A stretch of 64,000 bases of DNA, taken from contig OZ252296.1 of NCBI GenBank assembly GCA_965250245.1, positions 26,994 to 90,993 on the forward strand. The letters are read 5' to 3'. Under the pieces are notes generated by a model. It searched no databases. It was not told the DNA's origin and saw only the letters and a program-made list of their open reading frames with translations. The translations under genes were made by a program, and so were the position numbers. This document shows, in pieces, positions 3,358 through 55,014 of the stretch. This DNA is from Inquilinaceae bacterium. GTDB lineage: Bacteria > Pseudomonadota > Alphaproteobacteria > DSM-16000 > Inquilinaceae. Each line of letters begins with the position of its first letter. Position 1 is the first letter of the stretch.

Positions 3358-3367
3358 CTCCCGGCGA

Positions 3368-8152: not shown

Positions 8153-8192
8153 GGTGGAGGCTGGTCGCTCCAGCGCACGGGCCGGCTGAAAC

Positions 8193-14978: not shown

Positions 14979-15025
14979 AACGCCGCTGGGCCGGTGAGGC
15001 CGGGTAGGCGCCTGCCGAGCCGTCA

Positions 15026-15197
15026 GCGCGGGACCTCGTCCTTCGACAGGCTCAGGATGAGGTCGTGAGCGTTGGACGGCGGATACGCCAATCAACCGCA
15101 CAATCTGACATTCGCGACTGACGCGATCCTCAGGAGTCTGAGGCCGCTCCACCCTATCGACCTCATCCTGAGCCTGTCGAAGGACGAGGTCCCGCGC
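15026..15197. repeat. MITE-like element with 40-bp perfect terminal inverted repeats
   Basis: GCGCGGGACCTCGTCCTTCGACAGGCTCAGGATGAGGTCG (15026-15065) is the exact reverse complement of 15158-15197, with a 92-bp core between. The total length is 172 bp and it has no coding capacity. Confidence 0.85.
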
Positions 15198-15208
15198 CGG
15201 CGTCGATG

Positions 15209-39319: not shown

Positions 39320-39354
39320 ACTTCCGTCGACGGCTTCTGGTGTGACGACGGTCG

Positions 39355-40026
39355 CTACGATCCGCTGAGCAGCGCGTCGAGGTCGCGGCGGACCTCGTCG
39401 GCGAGGATGCTGGCCAGGCTGGCGGGCGGCACCGCGCGCTGGGCCTGTTCCGGGGAAATGGTCGCCCAGTTTTCCGAGCCCGGGATCGGGGCGCTGCGGC
39501 GGGCGATGCGGTATTCCAGCGGCGTGTTGGTGCCGGCGCGGCGGTCCTCGACCAGCAGCTGGGCCCGCATCGACAGGGTGCAGGTCTGCTCGTAGACCAG
39601 CCCGCCATCGCAGAAATAGGCGCCGTCCACATTGACCCGGACATAGACGTCCGACGCCGCACGCGCGGTGTCGGAATCGCGGTCGACGAGGTCGACCCGG
39701 GCGCCCGGCGCCTGGTCGCGCAGCGCGTCGCGCACCGCCCGCCCGACCGCCTGATAGGCCTCCGGGACGTCGAGTTCCGGGCGCATGCCAAAGCGTCCCT
39801 CGAAGGAGGTGTCGAGAACGGCGATGCTCTGGCCGTCATAGGCAACGCCGACGATGGCGCTATCTTCCAGCGTGTTCTTGACGTTCTTCAGGTTTGGCGC
39901 GCAGGCGCCGGCTGCGAGGCAGGCGATCAGAATCAGCCCGCATTGGGCGACAGCAGGAACACGCACGAGGACCCTCCGGACTTCTTGTCGGGATCGGGAC
40001 GGTGAGCGGCGACGGTCTTGTATCAC
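39355..40026 (-). CDS. Hypothetical lipoprotein/secreted protein
   Basis: 223 aa from a GTG start. Signal with ...LIACLAAGAC. Convergent with the previous gene. Confidence 0.6.
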   Translation of the reverse strand: MIQDRRRSPSRSRQEVRRVLVRVPAVAQCGLILIACLAAGACAPNLKNVKNTLEDSAIVGVAYDGQSIAVLDTSFEGRFGMRPELDVPEAYQAVGRAVRDALRDQAPGARVDLVDRDSDTARAASDVYVRVNVDGAYFCDGGLVYEQTCTLSMRAQLLVEDRRAGTNTPLEYRIARRSAPIPGSENWATISPEQAQRAVPPASLASILADEVRRDLDALLSGS

Positions 40027-40232
40027 GAATTCCGCTAATCCACGGTTAAGGCAGTGATGGCCGTTTTCGGATACGCGGTCACAATATTCTCAAAACAAAT
40101 TTTAAATAAAAATGATCGGATTTCGACTTTCCATAATGAAAATCATGTAACGAATTATTACGAGGCCTTGAGATTGTATCCGGCACTCCAAGATTCATCG
40201 GAACTCTGGAACCAGATCGGAGACGTGACGGA

Positions 40233-41066
40233 ATGGTCGGGATCAAGGCCGTGGCATCCGCCGCCGCAGTGCTTCTGGTGATATTGCCGGGCCTGGGCGC
40301 CCATGCGCAGGAGGGCACGCCGACGGAGGAGCGGCCCGGCGGCCGGCCCGGCGCGCCGGAAGGCGACTGGGTGTTCCGCCTCGGCGCGGCGGGGAGCTAT
40401 GGCCCTGAATACGAAGGATCGGACGAGTACGAGTTCAGCGCATTGCCACTGCTGGAGGTCGAGTACAAGGAGCGGTTCTTCCTGAGCCCGGTGCGGGGTG
40501 CCGGCGTCTTCCTGTTCAACGATCGGACCTTCCAGCTCGGCGTGGCGGTCGGTTACGCGTTCGGGCGGGACGAGGACGATTCCAGCGACCTGAACGGGCT
40601 CGGCGACATCGATGGCGGCGCCGTCGTCAACGTGAACGCCGAATACAATCTCTTCGAGCAGGAGATCCTCCCCGGCCTGTCCTTCGGCGCCCAGTTCGAG
40701 CACCAGTTCACCGGCGACGATGTCGGGTTCACCCTTGGCGGCGATATCGGCTACCGCTTTCCCATCTCCCGCCGGCTGTTCCTGCGGCCGTCGGTGAACG
40801 CCGTCTATGCCAGCGGCGAGAACATGGACGCGTTCTTCGGCGTGTCGGCGGCGCAGTCGGCCGGATCGGGGCTCGCCCAGTTCGACCCGGATTCGGGCAT
40901 CAAGTCGGTCGGCGCCTCGCTGGGCACCTTCTACCAGTTCACCGAGAACTGGGGCGGCCAGGCTTTGCTGGCCTACGAGCGGCTGGTCGGAGACGCCGCA
41001 GACAGCCCGATCGTCAAGGACGAGGACCAATACCGGGCGTTCCTGGGTCTGGTGTACCGCTTCTGA
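40233..41066 (+). CDS. mipA: MipA/OmpV family outer-membrane protein
   Basis: 277 aa with a signal peptide (...GLGAHAQE), alternating beta-strand pattern and the C-terminal aromatic end ...GLVYRF. Confidence 0.85.
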   Translation: MVGIKAVASAAAVLLVILPGLGAHAQEGTPTEERPGGRPGAPEGDWVFRLGAAGSYGPEYEGSDEYEFSALPLLEVEYKERFFLSPVRGAGVFLFNDRTFQLGVAVGYAFGRDEDDSSDLNGLGDIDGGAVVNVNAEYNLFEQEILPGLSFGAQFEHQFTGDDVGFTLGGDIGYRFPISRRLFLRPSVNAVYASGENMDAFFGVSAAQSAGSGLAQFDPDSGIKSVGASLGTFYQFTENWGGQALLAYERLVGDAADSPIVKDEDQYRAFLGLVYRF

Positions 41067-41242
41067 GCACGCCCGGGCCGCGGCGCCGGCACGGTTACTG
41101 CCCGCGCAGATGGAAATGCGCGCGCCCTCTTGTCGCAAAACGATTCCCCTTACGCCATGTTCCTGATATGTTCGGAGCTCCGGGGCTGCTGACCGGACGT
41201 GGATGCCGCCCCCAATGAGACAAATCCGGGCGGGGGACATCG

Positions 41243-42730
41243 ATGGGGCGATATCGCGGATTGCTCGCCGGGCTGTTGCTTGCGGGCCTGTCCGCACCGG
41301 CGGCGGCGCAATATTCCGAGAGCGTTGCGGGCTGGGAGATCGCCGGTGCCGACGGGATCTGCCTCGGCGTCGGTCCGGTCGTCGCGGGCAACCATGTGGC
41401 CATAGGGATCGGTGGCGGCGGCTTCCATCTGAGCGCGAATTCGACGCGGTTCAGCTACGGCTCGGTCCGCAGCCTGGCCGTCACCCTGGCGATCGACGAC
41501 CGATGGGAGCGGCGGATGTCCGCGACCGTCGATCTGGAAGACCTCCTGTTATTCGAGTTCGACCTGTCGGACCCGTTCATCGACCATCTCCGGGCCGGCA
41601 ACGTGCTGCGCGTGGACACCGGGCAGGCCGTCTTCAAGGTGGGATTGTCCGGGTCATCGGCCGCGATCGCCGCTTTGTGGGAATGCGGACGCCAGGTCGG
41701 CGCGCCGACGGGGGCGGCAACCGCCGTGCCCGCCGCGCCCGCCGGGCCGGATGATCCCGGCAACGAATTCCGGATCGGAAGCTGGCTCGGCGAAGCCTAT
41801 TTCCACGAGGACGGTCGCTTCGCGGCCTGCATGGTATTCGGACCCGAGGACGGGCCGGTGCTGCTGTTGCTGAGCCGGTCGCCGCTCGGGTTCGAGATCG
41901 GGCTGCAGAACGACGATTGGGCGCTGGCGGATGGTGCCCGCTATCCCGTTTCAGTCGCCGTCGACGATCGATGGCGAGCCGACCTCGAGGCGCAGGCGAT
42001 CGGCACCGGCAGCGTCGTCATCGCGCTCGATCGCGCGCCGACGGCCCTCGACCATCTGCGTCGCGGAAATCGGCTGACGGTCACGGCGGCGCAACAGGTG
42101 TTCCGGTTCGACCTGTCGGGCAGCAGCGCGGCGATCGGCGCGCTGTCGGATTGCTATGCGGTCCGCACCGGCGAGACGGAGGTTGCGGCGGCGCCGGTTC
42201 CGCCGCCGGCCGAGGCTTCGGGGAGCACGCCGCCGGGGCCGGAACTCTCCATCGGCGTCTACCGCCGCCCCCTCGCAATGCGCCAGTCTGACGTCGAGGA
42301 GTTGATCCTGAGCCGGGTCGCGCCGTCGGGGCGGGTCTGGATCAACAACGAGACACCGCCGTTCTTCGAATTCTACGGCAATCGGGGCGTTCGCGATGGC
42401 GGCCCGGTCTGGGGCCAGGTGATCGCCGTCAGCGTGCCGAGCGGGCTGATCGAACTGGCGATGCTGGCCCTGTATGCCGACAGGGTGGCGGAATGCGGAG
42501 AGGGCGGCGAGTCCGGCCTGTTGCCGGCGGAATCGTACGCCGGACTCGATCTGCAATACGCCGTCATACAATGCGGCACCGAACCGGGGGACCGGCAGGT
42601 CGAACTGGTGCTGATGCTGATCGGGACCGACGGCGCGCTCTACGTCATCGAGGGCGGCTACACCGATACCTATCGCATGGCCGATCTGGTGCTGGCGATC
42701 CAGACCCTGGGCCGGGCCGTGGCGGAATGA
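41243..42730 (+). CDS. Secreted paralog 1 (architecture SP-A-A-linker-B) of an uncharacterised family
   Basis: 495 aa with the signal ...LSAPAAAQ. Two copies of the module with DDRW / HLR(A/R)GN / LSGSSAAI.AL..C, then a C-terminal module with 2 Cys. Confidence 0.75.
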   Translation: MGRYRGLLAGLLLAGLSAPAAAQYSESVAGWEIAGADGICLGVGPVVAGNHVAIGIGGGGFHLSANSTRFSYGSVRSLAVTLAIDDRWERRMSATVDLEDLLLFEFDLSDPFIDHLRAGNVLRVDTGQAVFKVGLSGSSAAIAALWECGRQVGAPTGAATAVPAAPAGPDDPGNEFRIGSWLGEAYFHEDGRFAACMVFGPEDGPVLLLLSRSPLGFEIGLQNDDWALADGARYPVSVAVDDRWRADLEAQAIGTGSVVIALDRAPTALDHLRRGNRLTVTAAQQVFRFDLSGSSAAIGALSDCYAVRTGETEVAAAPVPPPAEASGSTPPGPELSIGVYRRPLAMRQSDVEELILSRVAPSGRVWINNETPPFFEFYGNRGVRDGGPVWGQVIAVSVPSGLIELAMLALYADRVAECGEGGESGLLPAESYAGLDLQYAVIQCGTEPGDRQVELVLMLIGTDGALYVIEGGYTDTYRMADLVLAIQTLGRAVAE

Positions 42731-44019
42731 TGCGCGGGCTGCACATGCGGCCGGCGCCCGCACCGCCTTGGCCGTGCCCCCTGATCCATCTCGCCGGATT
42801 GGTCTTGGTGGTGCTTGCGATCGGGATTGTCCAACCGGTCCCGGCTTGGGCCCAGGACGTCAGCAGGCAGCAGGCCTTCACTGTTGGCGACTGGACCGGT
42901 CATGCCAGGTTCGATGGGAACGGGCTCTATCTCAGCTGCGCGGTTCAGCAAAGGCGGCCATCGGGCACCCAATTGTTCCTGGGCCTTGCCGGGCATGGGC
43001 TGTTGATCGTTCTGGTCGACACGTCCTGGAGCCTGCCCGCCGATGGGCGCCGGGCCGCGACCCTCATCGTCGACGACCGATGGGTCGAGCGGACGGTCGC
43101 GACGAACTCCAACGCACACGGATTGGTCATCGATCTCGGCCATGACGCGGAGGCGGTCGATGCACTGCGCCGTGGGCGATCGCTGACGGTGCAGATGCCC
43201 GATCGGACGCTGCAATTCAGCTTGACCGACAGCAGCGCTGCCATCGCGGGGCTGCAGGAGTGTCACACGCGCAACACCCGACCGGCGGCGATCGCCGAGG
43301 CGCCGGCGGCGCCCGCCGGCCTGGCCTCGGCGAACCCGTTTGCACCGGCGGACACGCCGCCATCGGCGCCGGCCGCACCGTCACCCAGCAATCCCTTCGC
43401 GCCGGTCGGCGCGACGCCATCGGCGCCTGAATCGGCGCCGCCCGGCAACCCCTTCGCACCGGCCTCGCCGCAGGGTGGTGCCGGAACGCCATCCGAGATC
43501 GCCGCGGCGCCGGCCGGGACACCGGGCGGGCCGCGCCCCGAGCCGGCCCGCGACGGCGTCCAGCGCATCACGCCGTATCTGCCGTTCGAGGCCTTTGCGC
43601 TGACCGTGGAACTGCTTCTGCCCGGGGAGCCGGAGGTCTGGGAAACGCCGGACGACAGGATGGCCGATTACCAGTTCCGGGGTGAGACGGACCAGGGCCG
43701 CTATCGCGGCCTCTATCTGGAAGTCGCGCCGCTTGGCGAGACGGTGGAGGAGACCCTTTACCGGTTCATGTGGGTCTCGGAAATGGCCTGTGACGGTCGC
43801 TCGCGCGTCATGGGAAGCGGCCTTGAGCGCTTTGGCGGTACGGGCGTGGCGTGGGAGACCATCGAATGCCGCACGTCGGGCGGCCTATTGTTCAGCTCGA
43901 CGGTGGTTTCGCACACCGAAGAAAGCGCCCAGATCTTCGTCGTCGACGGCGAGACCCCCGTCCTCGACGTCACCAAGGAGCTCTATCGGCTGCTGCGGGG
44001 CCTTGCCCAGGACGGCTAG
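42727..44019 (+). CDS. Secreted paralog 2 (SP-A-NPFAP repeat linker-B)
   Basis: 431 aa. Its ATG overlaps the paralog 1 stop (ATGA). Signal ...PVPAWAQD. Module A (IVDDRW, ALRRGRSLTV, SLTDSSAAIAGLQEC) and module B (ADYQFRGE...ACDG...IECR). Confidence 0.75.
   Translation: MMRGLHMRPAPAPPWPCPLIHLAGLVLVVLAIGIVQPVPAWAQDVSRQQAFTVGDWTGHARFDGNGLYLSCAVQQRRPSGTQLFLGLAGHGLLIVLVDTSWSLPADGRRAATLIVDDRWVERTVATNSNAHGLVIDLGHDAEAVDALRRGRSLTVQMPDRTLQFSLTDSSAAIAGLQECHTRNTRPAAIAEAPAAPAGLASANPFAPADTPPSAPAAPSPSNPFAPVGATPSAPESAPPGNPFAPASPQGGAGTPSEIAAAPAGTPGGPRPEPARDGVQRITPYLPFEAFALTVELLLPGEPEVWETPDDRMADYQFRGETDQGRYRGLYLEVAPLGETVEETLYRFMWVSEMACDGRSRVMGSGLERFGGTGVAWETIECRTSGGLLFSSTVVSHTEESAQIFVVDGETPVLDVTKELYRLLRGLAQDG
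43333..43503 (+). repeat. 3 x 57-nt (19-aa) in-frame tandem repeat inside paralog 2
   Basis: The units are NPFAPADTPPSAPAAPSPS, NPFAPVGATPSAPESAPPG and NPFAPASPQGGAGTPSEIA. The Asn codons are at 43333, 43390 and 43447. Confidence 0.8.
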
Positions 44020-44087
44020 GGCGCTGATAAGCTGACACCGCATCGGTCCGCCGGCAGGCGGCGGACCGCCGGACGGAGGACTGACCC

Positions 44088-44645
44088 ATGCCCAATCTGC
44101 CCTCGCTGCCGGAGGGCGCCCGTCTGCTCGACGTGTTCACCCGCTACCCCGAGCTCACCAGGCCGTTGATCGAGTATCACGAGGTGCTGTTGCGCGGGCC
44201 GTCCCCGATGAGCGTCGGCGAACGCGAGCTGATCGCGGCCTATGTCTCGGGGCTGAACGCCTGCCGCTATTGCCATGGCATCCATGCCCGCACCGCGGAG
44301 GCGTTCGGGATCGAGGAAGGGGCGCTGGAGGCGCTGGTCGAGGATGTCGAGGCCGCCGGCATCGACGCGAAGATGCGGCCGTTGCTGCGCTATGTGAAGA
44401 AGCTGACCGAAACGCCGTCGCGGATGACCGAGGCCGACGCCGAGCCGGTCTTTGCCGCCGGATGGGACGAGACAGCGTTGGTCCACGCGGTGTCGATCTG
44501 CGCCCTGTTCAACTTCATGAACCGGCTTGTCGAGGGCTGCGGGCTGAAGGGCGATCCGGGCTATGCGCTGCAGGCCGGCCCGCGCCTGATGGACGAAGGT
44601 TATTTGCCGATCCTGGAGCGGATGAAGCAGATGCCCAACGGCTAG
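44088..44645 (+). CDS. Carboxymuconolactone decarboxylase (AhpD-like) family, peroxidase-related protein
   Basis: 185 aa with a CxxC-H motif (LNACRYCHGIH). No signal peptide. Confidence 0.85.
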   Translation: MPNLPSLPEGARLLDVFTRYPELTRPLIEYHEVLLRGPSPMSVGERELIAAYVSGLNACRYCHGIHARTAEAFGIEEGALEALVEDVEAAGIDAKMRPLLRYVKKLTETPSRMTEADAEPVFAAGWDETALVHAVSICALFNFMNRLVEGCGLKGDPGYALQAGPRLMDEGYLPILERMKQMPNG

Positions 44646-44655
44646 GCCCGGGTTC

Positions 44656-45762
44656 GTGAAGAGGATTTGGGAGATGTTGCGGGGGCTGATTGCATGTGGG
44701 CTGGCCTTGGCCGCCGTGATCACCGCGGTCCCGGCCGCGGCGATGGAACGCGTGCGAATCGGCGACTGGTTCCTGAGCACGGATGTGACTGAAGGCGGCG
44801 ACCGATTCTGCACGGCGACCGGCCCGTCCACCGTAGACAGCGCCCTTCAACTCGCCTTCCTCGGAGAGCAATTCATCGTGGCGGTGCTCAGCGAGCGTTG
44901 GACGGATCGGATCGGCAGGGTCGTTCCGTTGCAGGCGGCGGTTGACGACCGCTGGGGCCAGATGCTGCTCGGCCGGATCATGTCCGAGAAATACCTCATG
45001 GTGGAATTCGCCAGGGACGATCCGGTGCTGGAGCATCTGCGGGCCGGGCGTCAATTCAACATCTCCCGGCAGAGCAACGTCATCTCATTCGACCTGACGG
45101 GATCGGCCGACATCATCGAGGCGCTGATCCTGTGCAGTCACGGCCTCGACTGGAATGACCCGGCTGACCCGCGCTCGGCGGGCGCCGATGGCGGCGGGAC
45201 CTCAACCGGGCAGCCGCCGTCCGATCCAACTGTGGAACCGCTCGACATAGGCCCCGTTGCGGTTGGCGGTGACCGGCCGAATCCGACCCGATACATCGTT
45301 CCGCATGTCGAACCGCTGCAGTCCTTCGAGGTCTTCGCGTCGTCGGTCGCACGCGCCGTGCCTGGCGACCCGCTTGTCGAGCGCACCGAGCCCGGCAACC
45401 GATTCGCCGATTACGAATTCCGGGGCGAGGCTGAAGGCGGTTTCTACTTCGGAAAATACTTCGCGGTCGCCCCTCAGGGCGCGACCATCGTCGATCTGCT
45501 CAACCGGGAAATGTCGGTCTCCGAGGCCACATGCACCGGCGATCCACGATCCGTCGGCCGGGGCGGGGAACGCATTGGCGGGACAAGTGTGGTCTGGGAG
45601 GTGATCGACTGCGGTGGCGACAGTGGCGTGCAGTTCCGCGCCGTCCTGGTCTCCGGCGACGGCCATGAGGCCCAGATCATCACGGTGTTCGGCGAACCGT
45701 CGACATATGAGGTGGCCGTGGCGCTCTACGACATGCTGCGGAATCAGGTGCGGCAGCGGTAA
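44656..45762 (+). CDS. Secreted paralog 3 (SP-A-linker-B)
   Basis: 368 aa from GTG 44656. An alternative ATG at 44674 has GAGG 9 nt upstream. Module A (AVDDRW, EHLRAGRQFNI, DLTGSADIIEALILC) and module B (ADYEFRGE...TCTG...IDCG). Confidence 0.75.
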   Translation: MKRIWEMLRGLIACGLALAAVITAVPAAAMERVRIGDWFLSTDVTEGGDRFCTATGPSTVDSALQLAFLGEQFIVAVLSERWTDRIGRVVPLQAAVDDRWGQMLLGRIMSEKYLMVEFARDDPVLEHLRAGRQFNISRQSNVISFDLTGSADIIEALILCSHGLDWNDPADPRSAGADGGGTSTGQPPSDPTVEPLDIGPVAVGGDRPNPTRYIVPHVEPLQSFEVFASSVARAVPGDPLVERTEPGNRFADYEFRGEAEGGFYFGKYFAVAPQGATIVDLLNREMSVSEATCTGDPRSVGRGGERIGGTSVVWEVIDCGGDSGVQFRAVLVSGDGHEAQIITVFGEPSTYEVAVALYDMLRNQVRQR

Positions 45763-45780
45763 CCCGCCGCCGAGGGTCTG

Positions 45781-46329
45781 CTAGCGCCCGGCGCGGATTC
45801 GCAGGGCCATGGCCTCGGCGCGGTGGCTCTGGGCCGCCTTGGCCTTGCGCCGGCCGATGCGGTGGGCGATGCCGGCGAACAGCGCCACAAGGCTGAGCAG
45901 AAGGCCCAGCAGCGCCAATCCCGCTGCCAGCATGGCCATCGGCGGCACCGCCTCGCCCAGCAGCACCGGCGGCCAGAGCCGGATGGCATGAGAGTAGACC
46001 TCCCACCCGGCGGCGGCGCCGAAGCCCAGGGCCCCGATCAGGCTGGCCCATTGCCAGATGGCGATCGCCAGCAGCATTCCGAGCAGTCCGAAGGCGAGGC
46101 CGACCGGGCCGTGGCTGACCGCAACCGGCATTTCCAGCCGGTCCTGCAAATCCAGCATGCCGGCCGGCCAGACCGGCGATTCGCCGGTCACCTCGAACAG
46201 GAACACCAGATGGGTGGCGACCAGGACCGCAAGCAGGAAGGCGCACACGCGGGTCGTGGACCGCGCACCGGTGCCGCCGGTTTCGGTTTCCGGCGCCGGG
46301 CCCTTGGCAATCTCCCTGGCACTTCTCAT
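45781..46329 (-). CDS. Hypothetical membrane protein
   Basis: 182 aa with about 4 hydrophobic segments. ATG start. Convergent with paralog 3. Confidence 0.6.
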   Translation of the reverse strand: MRSAREIAKGPAPETETGGTGARSTTRVCAFLLAVLVATHLVFLFEVTGESPVWPAGMLDLQDRLEMPVAVSHGPVGLAFGLLGMLLAIAIWQWASLIGALGFGAAAGWEVYSHAIRLWPPVLLGEAVPPMAMLAAGLALLGLLLSLVALFAGIAHRIGRRKAKAAQSHRAEAMALRIRAGR

Positions 46330-46491
46330 CGACGATCCTGCGGCATCTACGCCCCGGCGGGGACTGTAAACCTGTATTTCTTGCTGCTTCGTTGAAGCGC
46401 TGCCGGTGCGTTCTCCGGGCCGGGGCCCGGAATCGCGGGATTATTGGCGCTTCGCGTCCCTGCCGCAAGCCGCGCGTAGGTCCGGCGGACC

Positions 46492-47403
46492 CTACGGTCC
46501 GGCCGGCTCCGCTGCGCGGCCGCTGCGCAGGCGGCTGATGTTGATGCCGATCAGGATCAGCGCCAGCGCCGCCCAACCGCCGGCCGACGGGATCTCCGCC
46601 AGGAACAGCCAGGCCCAGAACACCGCGAACAACGGTACCAGATAGCTGACCTGGCTCATGAAGGTGGCGCCGACCGCGGTGATGATCTGGAAGCGCAACA
46701 GGTAGGCGAGACCCGTGGGCAGCAGCCCCAGGAAGACCAGCGCCAGCAGCGCCGGGCTGCCGGGCATCGCCTGCCACGGCCGGTCGACCAGCAGCGCCAG
46801 TGGGACCATGTAGACCGTCGCGGTGATCAGCACCGTGGCCGCATTGGCCAGCGGCGCCACATGCGCGACCCGCCGGGTCAGCACGCCCGACAGCGCGTAG
46901 CAGGCCGCGGCACCCATGACGGCGAGCTGGCCCAGGACGCTGGCCCTGGCCCCGGCGATGGCATCCAGCCCGACCAGCACCGCGACCCCGGCGAAGCCCA
47001 ACAGCATGCCCGCGACCTTCGGCAGCGTCAGCCGGTCGTCGCCGGTGAACAGGTGCGACAGGATCAGCGCCACGAACGGGCCGGTGGCCATCAGGATCGC
47101 CGCCATGGCGCTGTCGATGTGCTTCTGCCCCCAGCTGATCAGAACGAAGGGCAGGGCGGTGTTGAAGAAGCCGATGATCGTCAGCAGGCCGAGCGTGCGC
47201 GGGTCCGTCGGCAGCCGCAGCCCGGCCAGCCGCACGGCGATCGCCAGGGCGATGGCGGCCAGAAGGATGCGGCCGGCCGCCAGGCTGAGCGGCGCGAAGC
47301 CGGTCAGCGCGATCTCGATGCATAGGAACGCCGATCCCCAGATCGCGCCCAGGGCGAACAGGCGGGTGGTGTCGATCGCGGTGGGCTGGCGGATCGGCGG
47401 CAT
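46492..47403 (-). CDS. DMT-superfamily (EamA) transporter
   Basis: 303 aa, 10-TM pattern with two EamA-like halves. Confidence 0.88.
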   Translation of the reverse strand: MPPIRQPTAIDTTRLFALGAIWGSAFLCIEIALTGFAPLSLAAGRILLAAIALAIAVRLAGLRLPTDPRTLGLLTIIGFFNTALPFVLISWGQKHIDSAMAAILMATGPFVALILSHLFTGDDRLTLPKVAGMLLGFAGVAVLVGLDAIAGARASVLGQLAVMGAAACYALSGVLTRRVAHVAPLANAATVLITATVYMVPLALLVDRPWQAMPGSPALLALVFLGLLPTGLAYLLRFQIITAVGATFMSQVSYLVPLFAVFWAWLFLAEIPSAGGWAALALILIGINISRLRSGRAAEPAGP

Positions 47404-47513
47404 GGCGGGGCTCGGTCACGTTTGCGGGCCGCATGGGCGGCCCGGTGGCTTCTTCCTACACGGCGCGGCCCGCGTGCGAAAGTGTGTTCGGGGACCAGGT
47501 CCGATACCGGCGC

Positions 47514-48215
47514 CTATCCCGCCAGCCGGGCCTGCACCTTGTCGGACCGCAGTTCCTTCAGCGCGTCGCGGCCGATCCACTGCGCCGAGAGCTCCGGCCG
47601 CGCGACCAGGCGTTCCGCGCCGGCGATGGCGGCCCGGTTCAGGGACGGGTTGCGCTTGCCTATCTGGCGCAGCGCCCAATTGACGGCTTTCTTCACGAAG
47701 TTGCGGCCGTCATCGGCGGCCGCTTCGATCGTTGGGAGCAGCGCCAGGAACCGGTCGTCCGGCGCGCGCTTGTCGTGCACCGCCAGGCAGGCGATCAGCG
47801 CGAAGCCCGCGCGGCGGACGAAAGTCTCCTCGCGCGGGCACCAGCGCGCCACCATGCCGTAGGGATCGGCGGTCCGGCGCGCCAGGTTGAGGCAGAACTG
47901 GTCGGTGACGTCCCAGGAATCCAGCTCGGCGACCCAGCGTTCCAGCAAGGCGGCGTCGCAGGCCTTCGGGTCGGCGACCAGGGCCGCCAGGATGCGCGCC
48001 TCGTGCAGGCCCGATCGCCACAGCCCTTCGGCGACGGCCTGGTCGCGGCCGATCCGCCGGGCAGTCGCCCGCAGCACCGGCATCGACAGTCCCAGGGCGC
48101 GATCGGTGTTGATCCCGAACCGCGCCATTCCCTCGCGGGCCTCCGGGGCCGCCAGGGACCGCAGATGGGCGATTGCCGCCTCGGCCGTGTCGATGCTGTC
48201 CTGATCCGCCGCCAT
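47514..48215 (-). CDS. DNA alkylation repair protein (AlkD-like HEAT-repeat family)
   Basis: 234 aa from ATG 48215, with the motif WVAELDSWDVTDQF, ...NFVKKAVNWALRQIGKR. Confidence 0.8.
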   Translation of the reverse strand: MAADQDSIDTAEAAIAHLRSLAAPEAREGMARFGINTDRALGLSMPVLRATARRIGRDQAVAEGLWRSGLHEARILAALVADPKACDAALLERWVAELDSWDVTDQFCLNLARRTADPYGMVARWCPREETFVRRAGFALIACLAVHDKRAPDDRFLALLPTIEAAADDGRNFVKKAVNWALRQIGKRNPSLNRAAIAGAERLVARPELSAQWIGRDALKELRSDKVQARLAG

Positions 48216-48280
48216 CCTGCGTCCCGCCAATCCGTTGGTAACCGGGCCTAAACCCTTTTTCGCTAAGACAATTTTCATCA

Positions 48281-48874
48281 ATGTTACCAAGGAGAGGTTC
48301 GCCCGTGTGGATCGCGATCGCCGTGGCCGGCGCCATCCTGGTCTTCGGGTACGTCTGGTACGTCTCGATCATCGGCCGGCGCAACAAGGCCCAGGAGGCC
48401 TTTTCCGGGATCGACGTGCAGCTGAAGAAGCGGCACGACCTGATTCCCAACATCCTGACCATCGCCAAGCGTTTCATGGAGCATGAGCGCGGGCTGCTGG
48501 AGGACATCACGCGGCTGCGCGCCCAGGCGTTGGACGCCGGCGGCAAGCCGGACCCGCAGGCGGCCAAGCAGCTGTTCGAGATCGAGGCGGCGCTTCAGGG
48601 CCGGATGGGCCAGCTGATGGTGGCGGTGGAGAACTATCCGGACCTCAAATCCGACCAGACCATGCTGCAGGCCCAGCGCAGCTACAACGAGGTCGAGGCC
48701 AACATCGCCGCGGCCCGGCGTTTCTACAATTCGGCCGTCACCGCGCTGCGCAACGCCATCCAGGTCTTTCCCGGCTCGATGATCGCCGGCATGGCCGGAG
48801 TCGGCGATATGCCGCTGTTCGAGGCCGCAGAGGCCGACCGGCAGCCGGTCGATGCCGACAAGTATCTGAGCTGA
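48281..48874 (+). CDS. lemA: LemA family protein
   Basis: 197 aa with one N-terminal TM, then QLKKRHDLIPNIL...ENYPDLKSDQ...AARRFYNSAV, typical of LemA. An alternative GTG at 48305 has AAGGAG upstream. Confidence 0.9.
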   Translation: MLPRRGSPVWIAIAVAGAILVFGYVWYVSIIGRRNKAQEAFSGIDVQLKKRHDLIPNILTIAKRFMEHERGLLEDITRLRAQALDAGGKPDPQAAKQLFEIEAALQGRMGQLMVAVENYPDLKSDQTMLQAQRSYNEVEANIAAARRFYNSAVTALRNAIQVFPGSMIAGMAGVGDMPLFEAAEADRQPVDADKYLS

Positions 48875-48893
48875 CGGAAGCGGGAGCCGCGAC

Positions 48894-49919
48894 ATGACCG
48901 ATACGACGGATATGGCAAACATCCCGGTGCCGCAGGACGGCGAGCAGCCGCAGACGCCCGCGGCCGCCCCGGCGGGCGGCGGCGGACTCGAAAGCGAACT
49001 GCGCCCTGTCCTGGAAGAGCTGGACAAGGAGCGCGAATCCCAGAAGAACGAGCTGCTGTTCCGCGCCGCCACGGCGGTCCTGGGAGCCGGCGCGCTGGCC
49101 GTGGTCTGCGCCCTGGCGGCGGTCGGTACATTCGGCGCCGGGCTTGCCGAACTCAGTGTCGTGATCTACCTGCTGCCGCCGGTGCTCGTTGCCGTGGCGA
49201 TCGGCATCTGGGCGATCCAGCCGCGCCAGCGCTACATTTCGACGTACAAATCGAAGGTGCTGCCCGCCATCGCCGGCACCCTGGGCTCCTTCGAATACAA
49301 CGAGTCCGGCAAGATCAGCGAGAGCCGGCTGCGCGGCTCGACCCTGCTGCCGCATTTCGACGACTACAAATCCGAGGACAAGTTCACCGGCAGCTACAAG
49401 GGCGTCGGGATCGAGCTGGCCGAGGTCAAGATGACCCGCGAGCAGGGCAGCGGCAAGGACCGCAAGACCGTGACCGTCTTCAAGGGCCTGTTCGCGTTGC
49501 TGTCGACCCACAAGACAGTCAACGGCAAGACCGTGATCAAGCGCGACGCCGGCGCCATCGCCAACTGGCTGGGCGAGAAATTCGGCGGCATGGAGCGCAT
49601 CGCCCTGGAGGATCCGGCCTTCGAGGAGCGTTTCGAGGTCTACGGCACCGACCAGGTGGAGGCCCGCTACCTGCTGACCCCGGCCTTCATGGAGAGGCTG
49701 ACGGCGCTGGCTACCCATATGGGCGACGGCCGGCTGCAGGCCGCCTTCTATGACGAGCAGCTCTTCGTGATGGTGCCCAACAAGAAGGACCTGTTCGAGC
49801 CGCCCTCGATCTTCACCAGTGTGGTGAAGGACACCGGCGTCACCCGCATCTCCCGCGAGATGCGCGACGTCCTGTCAATCATCGACATCCTCCAGCTGGA
49901 CCAGCAGACCGGGCTGTAG
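48894..49919 (+). CDS. Two-TM membrane protein, tandem paralog 1 (DUF3137-like, unverified)
   Basis: 341 aa, 19 nt after lemA, with GGGAG upstream. It has two long hydrophobic segments. Motifs: SEDKFTGSYKGVGIELAE, VFKGLFALLS, LEDPAFEERFEVYGTDQVEARYLLTPAFMERL and AAFYDEQLFVMVP..FEPP. Confidence 0.8.
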   Translation: MTDTTDMANIPVPQDGEQPQTPAAAPAGGGGLESELRPVLEELDKERESQKNELLFRAATAVLGAGALAVVCALAAVGTFGAGLAELSVVIYLLPPVLVAVAIGIWAIQPRQRYISTYKSKVLPAIAGTLGSFEYNESGKISESRLRGSTLLPHFDDYKSEDKFTGSYKGVGIELAEVKMTREQGSGKDRKTVTVFKGLFALLSTHKTVNGKTVIKRDAGAIANWLGEKFGGMERIALEDPAFEERFEVYGTDQVEARYLLTPAFMERLTALATHMGDGRLQAAFYDEQLFVMVPNKKDLFEPPSIFTSVVKDTGVTRISREMRDVLSIIDILQLDQQTGL

Positions 49920-49929
49920 GGCGCCAGGC

Positions 49930-50979
49930 ATGCCGGACGATCCCGAGGTGAGGCAACCGGTCGTGTCCTCGGGAGCGCAATGCAAGAGTTCCCTCTTTGG
50001 CGAGAACCTCCGCGCCAAACTCGGACCGGAGATCGAGCAGCTCGAACGGGAGCGCGATGCGTGCAATCAGCTGGTGTCCAGGCGGCTGGGTATCGCCGTC
50101 AAGGTGATCCTTGCCACGACCGTGGCTCCGCCAACCCTGCTCATCGCCTATGGCGTCTTCAGGCGCGGCTTCGGCGTGTTGACGTTCGAGCTTCTGAACG
50201 TGTTCCTTCTCGCGCTCCCCATCGCGCTGGTCCTCGGACTGATCTTCTGGTTATGGGCCAATGAGCCGATCCGCGGATTCGTGGCGTCCTACAAGGCCAC
50301 GATCCTTTCGGCCGTTGCCGAAGCGGCCGGAGGGCTCGAATACGTCCACGACGGCGAGATTCCGATGGAGCGCCTTGAGCCGTCGACGCTGATCCCTGCT
50401 CATGACACCTACGAGTCGGAAGACCTGTTCCGCGGCGAATACAAGGGTGTCGACATCGAGCTTGCCGAGGCCGAGCTGGTGAGGATCGAGACCTATGAAG
50501 ACGACGAGGGAAACATCAAGACGCGGCATATCGTCGTCTTCTCGGGTCTCTTCGCGCTGCTCTCAATGAACAAGCGGTTTTCTGGCCGGACCGTCATTCG
50601 CACCGATATGGGTGCGTTGCTGAATTGGGTGCTCGACGGGTACGCGTCCCTGGAGCAGGTGCGGCTGGAGGACCCGGTCTTCGAGCAAAGGTTCGAAGTC
50701 TTCGCCGACGACCAGATCGAGTCCCGCTATCTGCTTACTCCGGCCTTCATGGAACGGCTCACCGCCGTGGCCGACGATTTCGGCAACGGCTCGATGCAGG
50801 CAGCGTTCTACGACAAGCGGCTGCTGTTGATGATTCCGTTGGTGCACGACCGGTTCGAGCCGCCTGAGATCAGCGTCAGCCTGATGGAAGACAGTGGCGT
50901 GCAGCGATTGGCAGGCGAACTCGGCGACGTGCTGTCGATCGTTGACGCCCTGAAGCTGGATGAACGGACCGGCCTGTGA
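49930..50979 (+). CDS. Two-TM membrane protein, tandem paralog 2
   Basis: 349 aa after a 10-nt gap. It has the same motifs (SEDLFRGEYKGVDIELAE, VFSGLFALLS, LEDPVFEQRFEVFADDQIESRYLLTPAFMERL) and the same ...TGL end as paralog 1. Confidence 0.8.
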   Translation: MPDDPEVRQPVVSSGAQCKSSLFGENLRAKLGPEIEQLERERDACNQLVSRRLGIAVKVILATTVAPPTLLIAYGVFRRGFGVLTFELLNVFLLALPIALVLGLIFWLWANEPIRGFVASYKATILSAVAEAAGGLEYVHDGEIPMERLEPSTLIPAHDTYESEDLFRGEYKGVDIELAEAELVRIETYEDDEGNIKTRHIVVFSGLFALLSMNKRFSGRTVIRTDMGALLNWVLDGYASLEQVRLEDPVFEQRFEVFADDQIESRYLLTPAFMERLTAVADDFGNGSMQAAFYDKRLLLMIPLVHDRFEPPEISVSLMEDSGVQRLAGELGDVLSIVDALKLDERTGL

Positions 50980-50998
50980 TCGGCCCTCGGCATACGTC

Positions 50999-52003
50999 AT
51001 GAAATCCATCGGATCGGGCGGGCCGTCGGGTTCCGCCGAATCGGACCGGATGTTCGGGAGCGCTACGAATGCGGCGAGCTGTCGCGGCGATGCGGCCGAC
51101 ATGCTGTCCGCTTTGGAGCGGTTGCGGCGTGACGGCCTGCGGAAGATCCTTGTGCGGTTGTCGATCGGCGCCGTGTTCGTCGGGGCGATCGCCGCGCTGA
51201 TGATGACTGTCCCGGCCGCCCCGGACATCCTGACGACGCTTGCCGTGTCGGCGGTCGCCGGCCTACTGATTTGGGCCTTTTGGGCGCATGTGCCATTGGG
51301 CGTGTTTCGCGAGTCCTACCAGGCGCGGTTCGTGCCGGAATTGCTGCGGCGCCTGGATGGGTTTCGGTACGAAGGGTCGGGGCGGCTGCCCCTGGAGTGG
51401 ATCTCCGATTCCGACATCGTTCCGGCATGCAACATCTACGACTCCGCGCATATGGTCTCAGGCGTCGGGTCGCGCGCCGGCGTGCAGTTCGCCGAGGCGG
51501 GGCTTACCCGATTTCAGGCGCACAGCCGCCGGTACAGGATCGCAACGACCCATGCTCAGGCCTTTGGCGGCCTCGTGCTGCTGCTGTCGCTTCCCAGGGC
51601 GTTTGCCGGCAAGACCGCGCTGATCCCCGATCCGGGGCCGCTGTTCCGGCTGTTCGGCGACGCTCCGGCCTGGGGAAATCTGGTCGGTCCCAGGCTGAAG
51701 ACGCGACACGGCAACTTCGAGGCCTTCTCGACGGACGCGGCGGAGGCGAAGGCCCTGATCGATCAGCCGCTGGCCGCCCGGCTGGCGGGTTGCGCGGCGG
51801 CGCTGGGCGGGGGCAAGGTCCGGCTGGCATGGTTTGATGCGCAGATCCTGTTGCTGTTGCCGCTCGAACATCGGCTGTTCGACGCGCCGTCGATCGTTTG
51901 GAGCGTCGACCCGGACGCGGTGCGGACCCGCGTCGAACGCGACGTCAGCACGATCGTCGAGATGGCTGAGTTGCTGCGCACCCGGGCAGAGTCGATCCAT
52001 TGA
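50999..52003 (+). CDS. Two-TM membrane protein, tandem paralog 3 (diverged)
   Basis: 335 aa from ATG 50999. It retains the architecture and the motifs FGGLVLLLSL and WFDAQILLLLPLEHRLFDAPS. The SED..F.G motif is eroded. Confidence 0.7.
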   Translation: MKSIGSGGPSGSAESDRMFGSATNAASCRGDAADMLSALERLRRDGLRKILVRLSIGAVFVGAIAALMMTVPAAPDILTTLAVSAVAGLLIWAFWAHVPLGVFRESYQARFVPELLRRLDGFRYEGSGRLPLEWISDSDIVPACNIYDSAHMVSGVGSRAGVQFAEAGLTRFQAHSRRYRIATTHAQAFGGLVLLLSLPRAFAGKTALIPDPGPLFRLFGDAPAWGNLVGPRLKTRHGNFEAFSTDAAEAKALIDQPLAARLAGCAAALGGGKVRLAWFDAQILLLLPLEHRLFDAPSIVWSVDPDAVRTRVERDVSTIVEMAELLRTRAESIH

Positions 52004-52135
52004 TCGGCTAGCCGGCCTTTGCAGCCGGCTTCCCGGCCCCTAGCCTGGGCCGATGACACGCATTCCCTTCGACGCCGAACCGGTGCTGCCGGGTGCCGGG
52101 TGCCGCCCGGGAAATCGCCGGTGGTGAACAGCGGC

Positions 52136-53125
52136 ATGTCGATCGTCCCAAAGCGGCGGCGGCGACCGAAGGTCGGGCCGCCGCGCGTGCCGTTCGGCGA
52201 GCAACCCGACGATGAGCGGTTCGGCGCCGTCATCCAGATCGCGGAAACCTTCCGCAAGGCCGCCAGGATGGCGATGGCCATGCGCCTGCTGGTCCTTGGC
52301 GCGCTCATCGTGCTGGTGATCTTCGCCCTGATGACGCTCATGGAGGCCGTGGACTCGAACAAATGGGGTCAGGCGCTGACCTTCGTGCTCGGCCCGATCC
52401 TGGCGATCTCGGCCGGCATCGCGCTTTGGGAGTTGTGGCTGCGCCGGCCGCTGATCGCCTATCGCAGGGAATTCAAGGCCCTGGTCATGCCGATGGTCGC
52501 GGCCCATTTCGGCGACTTCCGATACGATCCGGATGGTTACATGGCGTCGGGCGATCTGCAGCGGTCGGGGGTCGTACCGGAATATCGCTTCCAGCAGTCC
52601 GAGGACCATTTCAGGGGCGAGTATGGCGGCGTCGGCATCGAGTTCGCCGACGTGACGCTGTCGCAGCCGGGGCGGAACCATCCAGTCCATGTGTTCCAGG
52701 GCCTGTGCGTCAGGATCGCCGCCTGGAAGCGTTTGGACGGCGAGGTCCTGCTGCTGCGGCAACCGGAGTCCGACGCCGATTGCGGGATCGAGCCGCCGGC
52801 CGAACTGGGCCGCGTCGAGACGGCCGCCGATGGGGGATTTGCGCTCTACGCTTCGGAGGATGCCGAGGCCGTCCGGCTTGTGACGCCGGAGTTGACCGAA
52901 TGGCTGGCGGCCCTGGCGGATGGCCTTGGCGACGGCAGCGTGCGGGCCGCCTTCCACGGCGGTGGCCTGTTCGTCGCGGTGCCAGCCGATCTCGACCTGT
53001 TCGAGCCGCCGCCGATGTCGCGCAGCCTGAACCGGTACTCAGGACTTCGTGTGCTGGCGGGCCAGTTCGCGGCGATCATGCGGATCGTCGATGTGCTGAA
53101 GTCCGACCCGAACGCCCCGTTCTAG
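52136..53125 (+). CDS. Two-TM membrane protein, tandem paralog 4 (diverged)
   Basis: 329 aa from ATG 52136 (the ORF opens at 52019). Motifs: SEDHFRGEYGGVGIEFAD, VFQGLCV, LVTPELTEWL and AAFHGGGLFVAVP..LFEPP. Confidence 0.7.
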   Translation: MSIVPKRRRRPKVGPPRVPFGEQPDDERFGAVIQIAETFRKAARMAMAMRLLVLGALIVLVIFALMTLMEAVDSNKWGQALTFVLGPILAISAGIALWELWLRRPLIAYRREFKALVMPMVAAHFGDFRYDPDGYMASGDLQRSGVVPEYRFQQSEDHFRGEYGGVGIEFADVTLSQPGRNHPVHVFQGLCVRIAAWKRLDGEVLLLRQPESDADCGIEPPAELGRVETAADGGFALYASEDAEAVRLVTPELTEWLAALADGLGDGSVRAAFHGGGLFVAVPADLDLFEPPPMSRSLNRYSGLRVLAGQFAAIMRIVDVLKSDPNAPF

Positions 53126-53169: not shown

Positions 53170-55014
53170 ATGGCCCGTACGCCGATCACCCCGGACAGCC
53201 CGCAGCCAACCGGCGATCTTCGCGTCCTGTCATCGCTCGGACCGTATCTGTGGCCGAAGGGCGAGTGGGAGATGCGCATCCGGGTGGTCGTGGCCATCGC
53301 CTTCCTGGTCTCCGCCAAGCTGGCGAATGTCTATGTGCCGATCCTCTACAAGCAGGCGATCGACGCGCTGAACCCGACCGAAAACCTGGCCGTGGCGGTG
53401 CCGTTGGGCATCATCCTGGCCTATGGGCTGGCACGGGTGCTGAGCCTGGCCTTCGCCGAGCTGCGCGACGCGGTGTTCGCCAAGGTGGCGCAGCGGGCGA
53501 TCCGCAAGGTCGCGCTGTCGATCTTCCGGCACCTGCACGCGCTGTCGCTGCGCTTCCACCTGGAACGCCAGACCGGCGGGCTGAACCGGGCCATCGAGCG
53601 CGGCACCAAGGGCATCGAGACCCTGCTGTCCTTCATGCTGTTCAACATCCTGCCGACGCTGCTGGAGATCACCCTGGTGGCGGTGATCCTGTGGCAGCTG
53701 TTCGACATCTGGTTCTCGCTGGTCACCCTGGTCACCGTCATCCTCTATATCGGCTTCACCATGTGGGTGACGGAATGGCGGCTGAAGTTCAGGCGCCAGA
53801 TGAACCTGAATGACCAGGAGGCCAACACAAAGGCGATCGACAGCCTGCTGAACTTCGAGACTGTGAAGTATTTCGGCAACGAGGCGCACGAGGCGCGGCG
53901 TTTCGACAGCGCCCTGGTGGAATACGAGACGGCGGCGGTGAAGAGCCGGTCGTCGCTGTCGCTGCTCAACATCGGCCAGGCGGTCATCATCTCGGTCGGC
54001 CTGACCGGGGTCATGTTCATGGCCGGGCGCGGCATCGTTGCCGGCCAGATGACCATCGGCGATTTCGTGCTGGTGAACACCTATCTGATGCAGCTCTACC
54101 AGCCGCTCAACTTCTTCGGCTTCGTCTACCGCGAGATCAAGCAGAGCCTGGCGGATATGGAGCAGATGTTCGACCTGCTGGGCGTCTCCGCCGAAGTCCA
54201 GGACGCACCGGGCGCGCCGCCGCTGGACGTGAATGGCGGAGCGGTCGCATTCGAGGAGGTGCATTTTGGCTATGATTCGAGGCGTCCGATCCTCAAGGGC
54301 GTCTCCTTCGAGGTGCCGCCGGGCAAGACCGTCGCCATCGTCGGACCGACCGGGGCCGGCAAGTCGACCATCAGCCGGCTGCTGTTCCGCTTCTACAACG
54401 CCAATGAAGGCCGGGTGACGATCGACGGCCAGGACGTGACCGAGGTGACCCAGGCCAGCCTGCGCGCCACCATCGGAATCGTTCCCCAGGACACCGTGCT
54501 GTTCAACGACACCATCTACTACAACATCTCGTATGGCCGCCCCGGGGCCTCGCCGGCGGAGATCGAGGAGGCGGCGCGGCTGGCCCGGATCCACGATTTC
54601 GTCATGGGCCTGCCGGACGGCTACGAGACCCGGGTCGGCGAGCGCGGGCTGAAGCTCTCCGGCGGCGAGAAGCAGCGGGTGGCGATCGCCCGCACGATCC
54701 TGAAGCAGCCCGCGATCCTGCTGTTCGACGAGGCGACCTCGGCGCTCGACACCCACACAGAGCGCGAGATCCAGGCCAATCTGCGCGAGGTCAGCACCGG
54801 CCGCACGACCCTGGTCATCGCCCACCGCCTGTCCACGGTGATCGACGCCGACGAGATCATCGTGCTGGAGGAGGGCCGCATCGCCGAACGCGGCCGCCAC
54901 GCCGACCTGCTGGCCCGCGACGGCGCCTATGCCGCCCTGTGGCGCCGCCAGCAGGAGGCGGCGGAGCGCGGGGTGGCGGCCGTGGCTGTGGCGCCGGCTA
55001 TCGAACCGACCTGA
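53170..55014 (+). CDS. ABC transporter, fused permease/ATPase, ATM1/HMT1-type exporter
   Basis: 614 aa with a 6-TM domain plus NBD (GPTGAGKST, LSGGEKQRVAIAR, LLFDEATSALD). Confidence 0.92.
   Translation: MARTPITPDSPQPTGDLRVLSSLGPYLWPKGEWEMRIRVVVAIAFLVSAKLANVYVPILYKQAIDALNPTENLAVAVPLGIILAYGLARVLSLAFAELRDAVFAKVAQRAIRKVALSIFRHLHALSLRFHLERQTGGLNRAIERGTKGIETLLSFMLFNILPTLLEITLVAVILWQLFDIWFSLVTLVTVILYIGFTMWVTEWRLKFRRQMNLNDQEANTKAIDSLLNFETVKYFGNEAHEARRFDSALVEYETAAVKSRSSLSLLNIGQAVIISVGLTGVMFMAGRGIVAGQMTIGDFVLVNTYLMQLYQPLNFFGFVYREIKQSLADMEQMFDLLGVSAEVQDAPGAPPLDVNGGAVAFEEVHFGYDSRRPILKGVSFEVPPGKTVAIVGPTGAGKSTISRLLFRFYNANEGRVTIDGQDVTEVTQASLRATIGIVPQDTVLFNDTIYYNISYGRPGASPAEIEEAARLARIHDFVMGLPDGYETRVGERGLKLSGGEKQRVAIARTILKQPAILLFDEATSALDTHTEREIQANLREVSTGRTTLVIAHRLSTVIDADEIIVLEEGRIAERGRHADLLARDGAYAALWRRQQEAAERGVAAVAVAPAIEPT

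Follow-up and report, generated by a model that had tools for sequence, protein, structure and literature searches.

What are four related membrane-protein genes doing behind a single lemA? The question is raised by a five-gene array in a 64-kb stretch of an alphaproteobacterial chromosome of ~68% G+C (contig OZ252296.1; this whole stretch is called the window below), where one lemA gene is followed by four genes of the DUF3137 family. LemA (PF04011) and DUF3137 (PF11335) are both large families without an assigned function. Among LemA relatives, MamQ alone has been linked to a process in the cell, and a membrane process at that: it is needed for magnetosome membrane formation (PMC4902198). 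Apart from MamQ, we found no functional study of LemA in the literature, and DUF3137/PF11335 appeared there only in passing mentions in lists of genes or proteins; a paper on the Bacteroides iron stimulon does no more than list one gene of each family, in different tables.

We find that the array is an expanded variant of the lemA-DUF3137 pair, which is catalogued but unstudied, and not a new kind of system. As to what the expanded set may do, our preferred reading, to which we assign a probability of roughly 40%, is a non-enzymatic, cytoplasm-facing inner-membrane LemA-DUF3137 adaptor complex with alternative subunits, possibly induced by stress.

One lemA gene is followed by four DUF3137 genes

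The array comprises one lemA and four DUF3137 genes, all on the + strand, and open reading frame (ORF) calling places gaps of 19, 10, 19 and 132 nt between them. This arrangement of five tandem same-strand ORFs was described in a first-pass annotation made from the sequence alone, and it agrees with an independent public gene call on an identical genome (14,078 nt without a mismatch), which gives a LemA of 189 aa and DUF3137 proteins of 341, 349, 334 and 329 aa. The third copy is thus 334 aa long, rather than the 335 aa first given. The features are as follows, in coordinates of the window; c1 to c4 denote the four DUF3137 copies in their order after lemA.

48238-48264, + strand: candidate extracytoplasmic function (ECF)-type promoter, with -35 GTAACC (48238-48243), a 17-nt spacer and a -10-like CGCT (48261-48264)
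48289-48294, + strand: Shine-Dalgarno sequence AAGGAG for the GTG start of lemA, read from the sequence
48305-48874, + strand: lemA (PF04011), single-pass membrane protein, 189 aa from GTG (197 aa from ATG 48281)
48894-49919, + strand: DUF3137 copy 1 (c1; PF11335), 341 aa, canonical
49930-50979, + strand: DUF3137 copy 2 (c2; PF11335), 349 aa, canonical
50999-52003, + strand: DUF3137 copy 3 (c3; PF11335), 334 aa, degenerate
52004-52135, + strand: 132-nt spacer before copy 4, possibly an internal promoter, as suggested by its conservation
52136-53125, + strand: DUF3137 copy 4 (c4; PF11335), 329 aa, degenerate
53170-55014, + strand: Atm1-type ATP-binding cassette (ABC) exporter (ABC_membrane and ABC_tran domains), 44 nt past c4, given for context only

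The product of the first gene had been recognised as LemA, and it indeed matches PF04011 with 142.9 bits (Pfam; cut-off 26.2; E = 8.6e-42), along 145 of the 149 model positions. Its helical-bundle domain, residues 31-184, aligns with the protein of known structure 2ETD (2etd_A; phmmer E = 2.3e-23). There is one N-terminal hydrophobic segment, a transmembrane (TM) segment at about residues 9-31 in the 197-aa reading, or from residue 2 if translation begins at the GTG. The GTG at 48305 is the more likely start, and it replaces the ATG at 48281 chosen earlier, because AAGGAG lies 10 nt upstream of it and because relatives conserve the GTG but not the ATG. The Shine-Dalgarno sequence is conserved there as AAGGA(A/G)GG, and the GTG is kept wherever the alignment extends that far and is the start in the public gene call; the ATG has no ribosome-binding site. 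Like MamQ, the window LemA belongs to the LemA fold family. MamQ differs from it in that its N-terminus is long and cytosolic and one domain is predicted to be lumenal (PMC3905215). The window LemA scores far below the MamQ cut-off (57.1 bits with NCBIfam NF040966, equivalog cut-off 250), and no magnetosome genes are present. LemA also gives a weak match (E = 2.3e-7) to phrog_1383, a PHROG annotated 'virion structural protein'.

All four remaining proteins belong to DUF3137

The first-pass annotation had proposed that the four genes behind lemA encode DUF3137 proteins. All four products exceed the PF11335 gathering score of 26.1, with 130.3, 109.5, 33.5 and 45.8 bits for c1 to c4 (E = 5.7e-38, 1.6e-31, 4.6e-08 and 7.2e-12; Pfam), each over ~138 of 139 model positions. 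They also resemble one another: c2, c3 and c4 are 46%, 25% and 29% identical to c1, and identities among the other copies are 27% (c2-c3), 31% (c2-c4) and 22% (c3-c4). Mutual similarity and a common profile match, on which the idea of a paralog array depended, are thus both present. At the DNA level the array contains a repeat family of four in-register 89-nt copies, spaced by ~1.06 kb and 60-71% identical. The same repeat analysis found no long identical stretches between the copies, so there is no sign of recent amplification or gene conversion.

Hydropathy gives two hydrophobic segments in each of the four copies, as had been claimed, and the shared architecture is that of a charged N-terminal helix, two TM segments and a C-terminal alpha/beta domain of ~220 aa. 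The motifs that had been listed as shared by the copies turn out to be conserved columns of the whole DUF3137 family. To quantify how far each copy retains them, we used the 46 alignment columns that are conserved in at least 75% of the family members outside the window. Both c1 and c2 retain 44 of the 46, compared with 22 in c3 and 25 in c4, in agreement with the earlier impression that the last two copies are eroded. Losses in c3 include D162, the LED triplet, F243, Q254 and R258 (c1 numbering), and two arginines of the N-terminal helix, R47 and R57, are present in all four copies. No enzymatic family was matched in Pfam, NCBIfam, PADLOC or PHROGs, in line with the first reading that enzymatic motifs are absent.

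The lemA-DUF3137 pair is a conserved unit

We placed the array among its relatives with a one-genome-per-species scan, which returned at least 597 of them; the best 80 loci, together with exact-protein look-ups, gave the 82-88 loci that were analysed. In an all-against-all clustering of neighbouring genes, the only recurrent neighbour was lemA, which 64 of the 82 loci carry on the same strand immediately 5' of DUF3137. The next clusters were an antisense ghost ORF of lemA and then a generic ABC ATPase in 18 related loci, and no conserved third gene near lemA-DUF3137 emerged from these 82 loci. Spacing is tight: of 59 pairs, 90% have a possible DUF3137 start no more than 30 nt from the lemA stop. 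LemA is far better conserved than DUF3137 over the same loci (median identity 56% versus 33%). The DUF3137 family itself is large, with 12,411 clusters at 50% identity (E <= 1e-3), and its members are mostly 300-440 aa long, as judged from the best 150.

The window array is like the annotated lemA-DUF3137 pair in its domain content, in having lemA first, in its same-strand arrangement with tiny gaps, and in the combination of a two-TM hairpin with a ~220-aa domain. It differs in carrying four DUF3137 genes for one lemA, two of them strongly degenerate. One DUF3137 copy is present in about 66 of the 82 loci and two in about 15 (~one in five); three occur in a single locus (L029), two lemA-DUF3137 modules, one of them fragmented, in another (L017), and four only in the window. 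Arrays with several copies thus recur, and the four copies of the window are the largest number observed, without setting it apart in kind. It had been expected that DUF3137 is LemA-adjacent and usually single-copy, and this is borne out by the 64 of 82 loci and by the one copy found in about three quarters of them. Two-copy arrays are not rare, but none has been functionally explained, and the observation therefore stands in a weakened form.

Two of these multi-copy cases deserve description. Eight loci from gut alphaproteobacterial metagenome-assembled genomes (L033, L037, L040, L042-L044, L048 and L051) carry lemA, a divergent DUF3137 (E between 1e-5 and 1e-18) and a canonical one (E ~1e-80), in that order. 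Here a divergent paralog has been retained independently beside a canonical one, in the order opposite to that of the window, and such pairing is therefore not unique to the window. In L017, from a gammaproteobacterial metagenome-assembled genome, two lemA-DUF3137 modules stand in tandem (4273-8759); the first DUF3137 is split (5004-5417 and 5575-5853), probably as a pseudogene or through an assembly frameshift.

The array is old and its copies are under purifying selection

Syntenic relatives of the window share its flanks, with a DNA-alkylation-repair gene and EamA upstream and the Atm1-type ABC gene and MeaB downstream. Their c1 orthologues are ~90% identical to one another, and c1 orthologues show 76-98% identity to the window c1. 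The second copy, however, differs in each relative: it is c4-type in L001 (L001_b, 54% identical to the window c4), c3-type in L084 (L084_b, 73%), a member of the c3 clade in L004 (35-39%) and c1-like in L083 (L083_b, 55-60%), where a 53-aa LemA remnant lies upstream. Because each relative keeps a different second copy, we read the array as an old multi-copy one with differential loss.

Orthologues of the other window copies are found more widely. For c2 they include P0027 and P0126 (~70%) and L085 (97%), a near-identical strain with the order lemA-c1-c2. At least five other assemblies have the c3 type, with identities of 55-75%, and the c4 type is represented by L001_b (54%) and P0104 (97%). 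Two short contigs from more divergent organisms, L087 and L088, each hold a c2-type gene followed by a c3-type gene across a 20-nt gap; identities are 70% (c2-type) and 75% (c3-type) in L087, and 83% over the end of c2 and 71% (c3-type) in L088. On the simplest reading, the ancestor had an array of at least c1-c2-c3-c4, from which the relatives lost different members while the window kept the full set.

All four copies are intact and under purifying selection. Ratios of nonsynonymous to synonymous substitution rates (dN/dS; NG86 method) are 0.08-0.36 for c1, 0.22 for c2 (against L085), 0.26 for c3 (against L084_b) and 0.39 for c4, compared with 0.04-0.26 for LemA and 0.11-0.13 for the neighbouring ABC gene. 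Despite this constraint the copies change fast: in the comparison of the window with L001, dN reaches 0.17 for c1 and 0.38 for c4, against 0.075 for LemA and 0.04 for the ABC gene. The view of the first-pass annotation that the duplications are old and retained is supported by the orthologues of all four types elsewhere, by the c2-then-c3 order in two more divergent organisms and by the low dN/dS.

The LemA remnant of L083 (5374-5532) lies between two DUF3137 genes and is 62% identical to the N-terminus of the window LemA. The second copy in L083 therefore derives from a complete lemA-DUF3137 module that later lost its lemA to decay. L001 shows changes of another sort. Relative to L084 it carries, upstream, an extra AAA_15/AAA_21 ATPase and a DUF4435 protein (2097-4327), and relative to both L084 and the window it carries an extra BglII-like endonuclease and an MT-A70 methylase between the ABC gene and meaB (14211-15456). 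This neighbourhood accepts inserted defence-type genes.

Charge statistics predict a common cytoplasmic face

Positively charged residues are distributed unevenly around the TM segments of both families. In 68 DUF3137-linked LemA proteins the tail before the TM segment has a median length of 4 aa and holds 0.6 lysine or arginine residues (K/R), and the 15 aa after the TM segment hold 3.5, typically in the form (K/R)RNK. In 91 DUF3137 proteins there are 4.2 K/R in the 15 aa that precede TM1 and 3.6 beyond TM2, with 0.7 in the loop between the helices (median length 11 aa). The positive-inside rule predicts an N-out/C-in LemA and a DUF3137 with both ends inside, which would place the soluble domains of the two proteins on a common cytoplasmic face.

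The predicted DUF3137 fold resembles TtfA

An AlphaFold2 model of c1 was confident (predicted local distance difference test, pLDDT, 88.9; predicted TM-score 0.82), and so was that of c3 (pLDDT 85.4), in which the secondary-structure elements follow the same order as in c1. When the models were compared with the PDB by Foldseek, TtfA (6t84) was the sole match at E <= 0.001 for both, with E = 5.9e-6 for c1 and 5.9e-5 for c3, a probability of 1.00, and TM-scores normalised to TtfA of 0.58 and 0.56. A Tubby/scramblase-like barrel was considered for DUF3137 and rejected, no such PDB match being obtained by Foldseek with either model. Foldseek also detected the DUF3137 fold in A0A8S5UBB5 (BFVD), a 252-aa protein from a metagenomic Caudovirales contig (E = 4.4e-7, 18% identity).

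TtfA (Rv0383c/MSMEG_0736; PDB 6T84) is transport factor A for trehalose monomycolate in mycobacteria. It is membrane-anchored with a cytoplasmic C-terminus, as shown experimentally, is essential, binds the resistance-nodulation-division (RND) transporter MmpL3, and was reported without homologues of known function (PMC6593404). Its crystal structure has no lipid pocket (PMC7458404). DUF3137 is like TtfA in having an N-terminal membrane anchor and a folded domain on the cytoplasmic side (experimental for TtfA, predicted for DUF3137), with no recognisable catalytic motif or ligand pocket. It is unlike TtfA, which has one TM helix, in having a hairpin of two; and whereas TtfA has been reported from mycolate producers alone and acts together with MmpL3, the constant partner of DUF3137 is LemA, with no RND neighbour. 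Indeed, no RND gene was found among the recurrent neighbours of the 82 loci or among the genes called in 38,999-53,076 of the window. From these models the link to TtfA would be one of fold only: DUF3137 perhaps works like TtfA, and membership of the same family is not implied.

A candidate stress promoter precedes lemA

A 45-nt block upstream of lemA is near-invariant in the window, L003, L004, L083 and L084, and it is kept even in L004, where c1 is only 64% identical. It contains GTAACC-N17-CGCT, the only match to GTAACN-N14-18-CG[ACT][AT] on either strand of the window; the background for this relaxed ECF-16 pattern is 0.0086 per 240 nt. The ECF group-16 motif tGTAACc-N16-CGAA is that of Caulobacter sigma-F, Bradyrhizobium EcfF and Brucella BcrS, whose inducers are chromium and cadmium, H2O2 and HOCl, respectively (PMC3511200, PMC3420878, PMC8315932). 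The block resembles promoters of these regulons in its exact -35 (6/6), the CG core of its -10, its suitable distance upstream of lemA and its alphaproteobacterial host, and it is conserved in five related genomes. It differs in its spacer (17 versus 16 nt) and its -10 (CGCT versus CGAA, 2/4), and neither a sigma nor an anti-sigma gene was seen in the window. The paper on the EcfF regulon does not mention lemA (PMC3420878). We regard the site as a candidate ECF group-16-like promoter and as a lead only. The general stress promoter of EcfG, GGAAC-N15-18-CGTT, was also sought upstream of lemA and was found in 0 of 67 loci.

Within the array, the aligned stretch around the spacer before c4 (52004-52135) shows 77% identity with the spacer in front of the c4-type gene in L001 (11018-11160), and the two have TTGCAG-N16-TAGCCT in common, even though the c4 proteins are only 54% identical. 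This conservation suggests that the 132-nt spacer may be an internal promoter or another regulatory element. A generic scan for sigma-70 promoters and terminators was uninformative: it gave no promoters and two terminator-like sites, within the number expected from shuffles, neither of them in the 52004-52135 spacer or between c4 and the ABC gene.

An adaptor complex with alternative subunits as a working model

The adaptor complex that we favour would be built as follows. LemA would insert N-out/C-in, with its four-helix bundle beneath the inner membrane. Each DUF3137 protein would insert as a helical hairpin with both ends inside, so presenting its TtfA-like alpha/beta domain on the cytoplasmic face that LemA occupies. 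The two proteins would join via their TM and juxtamembrane helices to form a non-enzymatic scaffold or adaptor, which, by analogy with TtfA and MmpL3, might organise or assist another membrane machine, such as a transporter of lipids or envelope precursors. Around the single LemA, the four paralogs would be used as subunits either alternatively or in mixtures, the degenerate c3 and c4 being variant, possibly regulatory, subunits. In this clade the operon would probably be driven by a stress sigma factor of the ECF type, the best match being group 16, which responds to oxidants and metals. In favour of the model we count the constancy of the lemA-DUF3137 pair, the charge-based prediction of a common face, the TtfA match of both models, the lack of enzyme or defence families, the differential loss from an old array, the constraint on all copies with both N-helix arginines kept, the recurrence of a canonical beside a divergent copy in the gut alphaproteobacterial loci, and the promoter candidate. 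Gene content, pairing, the history of the paralogs, selection and the likeness of the predicted folds are observed here; the topology, a physical contact, the adaptor role and the regulation are inferred.

Several observations weigh against this adaptor model. Among the conserved neighbours of the pair in the 82 loci there is no transporter for it to assist. Twelve loci with enough flanking DNA carry DUF3137 and no lemA within 8 kb, and LemA is therefore not obligatory in cis. The resemblance to TtfA comes at 12-13% identity and an rmsd (root-mean-square deviation) of ~7 A between a crystal structure and predicted models; the c1 and c3 models draw on a largely common alignment and so are not independent; and profiles of full-length DUF3137 and of its soluble domain, run against PDB sequences, gave spurious TM matches only and no TtfA at E <= 10. 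TtfA itself has no assigned biochemical role, and the analogy is therefore poor in mechanism. The C-terminal domain of LemA and MamQ has been predicted to lie outside the cytoplasm (PMC3905215), opposite to our charge-based call. Lastly, the promoter match is imperfect, with a 17-nt spacer and CGCT in place of CGAA, and the candidate is confined to one clade (5 of 67 lemA upstream regions).

How do other explanations fare on the same evidence? The duplicates could be redundant and in decay, only c1 and perhaps c2 working with LemA, with c3 and c4 as relics and no collective function. The loss of about half of the conserved positions from c3 and c4 (22 and 25 of 46 retained), the absence of different copies from close relatives, the high dN of DUF3137 (0.17-0.38 versus 0.04 for the ABC gene), and the fragmented DUF3137 or LemA remnants of L017 and L083, which indicate that decay does happen in such arrays, all fit this explanation. 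We nevertheless consider it unlikely, given four intact frames with dN/dS values well under 1 (0.26 for c3 and 0.39 for c4), the presence of the c3 type in at least five other assemblies at 55-75% identity and of the c4 type in L001, and a c3 that is confidently modelled (pLDDT 85.4) and retains both N-helix arginines. The receptor or sensor set suggested in the first-pass annotation would, if extracytoplasmic, put the ~220-aa domains in the periplasm, consistent with the extracellular or lumenal C-terminal domain predicted for LemA and MamQ (PMC3905215) and with a paralog diversification typical of receptors. An even number of TM segments with positive N- and C-terminal flanks (4.2 and 3.6 K/R, versus 0.7 in the 11-aa loop; n = 91) instead implies that the large DUF3137 domain is inside, leaving only the ~11-aa loop exposed. 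There is also no signal peptide, and the DUF3137-linked LemAs are nearly devoid of an N-tail and have the conserved (K/R)RNK right after the TM segment. A periplasmic receptor is thus largely excluded.

An anti-phage or conflict module that acts at the membrane, in which the variable DUF3137 proteins would be diversifying specificity or effector subunits, would account for copy content that varies between close relatives and for fast sequence evolution. The L001 region has acquired the endonuclease-methylase and AAA_15/DUF4435 pairs, a metagenomic Caudovirales protein has the DUF3137 fold, and LemA weakly matches a phage family. Against these stand the lack of any PADLOC-DB 2.0 family matching any of the five proteins at E <= 0.1; the tblastn search, which gave no match in 50,697 phage records (with c1 as query) and matched only four plasmid records, all non-mobilizable (0.34-1.3 Mb); the position of the locus within conserved housekeeping synteny and its native composition, its G+C resembling that of the remaining window; the absence of a nuclease, NTPase or sensor partner conserved beside the pair; and dN/dS values below 0.4, with no signal of positive selection. 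We judge a defence role quite improbable. Another possibility is that the array is a clade-specific accessory to the downstream Atm1-type ABC exporter, tuning glutathione-linked or metal export under stress in parallel with TtfA and MmpL3. The ABC gene lies on the same strand 44-50 nt downstream of the array in the window, L001, L083, L084 and L004; no terminator-like site separates it from c4; and it may be co-transcribed with the array. Bacterial Atm1 homologues have been linked to heavy-metal tolerance, and the ECF group-16-like promoter would be consistent with oxidant or metal stress. The adjacency is limited to the clade of the window (L001/L003, L083, L084 and L004) and absent elsewhere, however, and lemA-DUF3137 extends beyond it; the ABC gene is outside the conserved module. 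The ABC protein is also 94% conserved, versus 77% for c1 and 54% for c4, unlike what tightly co-adapted partners would show. An accessory of this exporter therefore has, in our estimation, a low probability.

A broader version of the adaptor model would unite DUF3137 and TtfA in one ancient superfamily of membrane-tethered cytoplasmic adaptors, with LemA-DUF3137 as the general bacterial counterpart of TtfA. LemA-DUF3137 would then help a lipid or envelope-precursor transporter or the membrane-repair machinery, and arrays would be a source of exchangeable adaptor subunits, canonical as well as degenerate, under the control of an ECF stress sigma factor. We hold this broader version to be doubtful. 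If it were true, it would provide a first biochemical context for LemA, and TtfA, the partner of the tuberculosis drug target MmpL3, would not be specific to mycolate producers.

Significance of the locus

The locus amounts to a natural experiment, in which a single LemA has four partners, two canonical and two degenerate, with all of them under selection, and in which close relatives have kept different subsets. Its value is that of a tractable model for subunit exchange and specificity. New leads on the two families are the TtfA-like fold, the predicted common cytoplasmic face and the candidate stress promoter. Should the TtfA link reflect real homology, an orphan family would gain a connection to an essential accessory factor that serves MmpL3, a mycobacterial drug target.

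Surroundings of the array

An Rfam scan of 46-56 kb of the window gave chance-level matches only. Upstream of the array, three paralogous genes on the + strand (41243-42730, 42730-44019 and 44674-45762) encode proteins of 495, 429 and 362 aa that are 27-41% identical in pieces, the first having an internal repeat. A CMD-family gene is interspersed among them. To judge from a hydrophobic segment at the N-terminus, these proteins may be exported, and a faint DUF1176 match is the sole hint from Pfam. L001 and L084 lack this trio, MipA being followed there directly by CMD, and the trio forms a second local paralog expansion adjoining the DUF3137 array.

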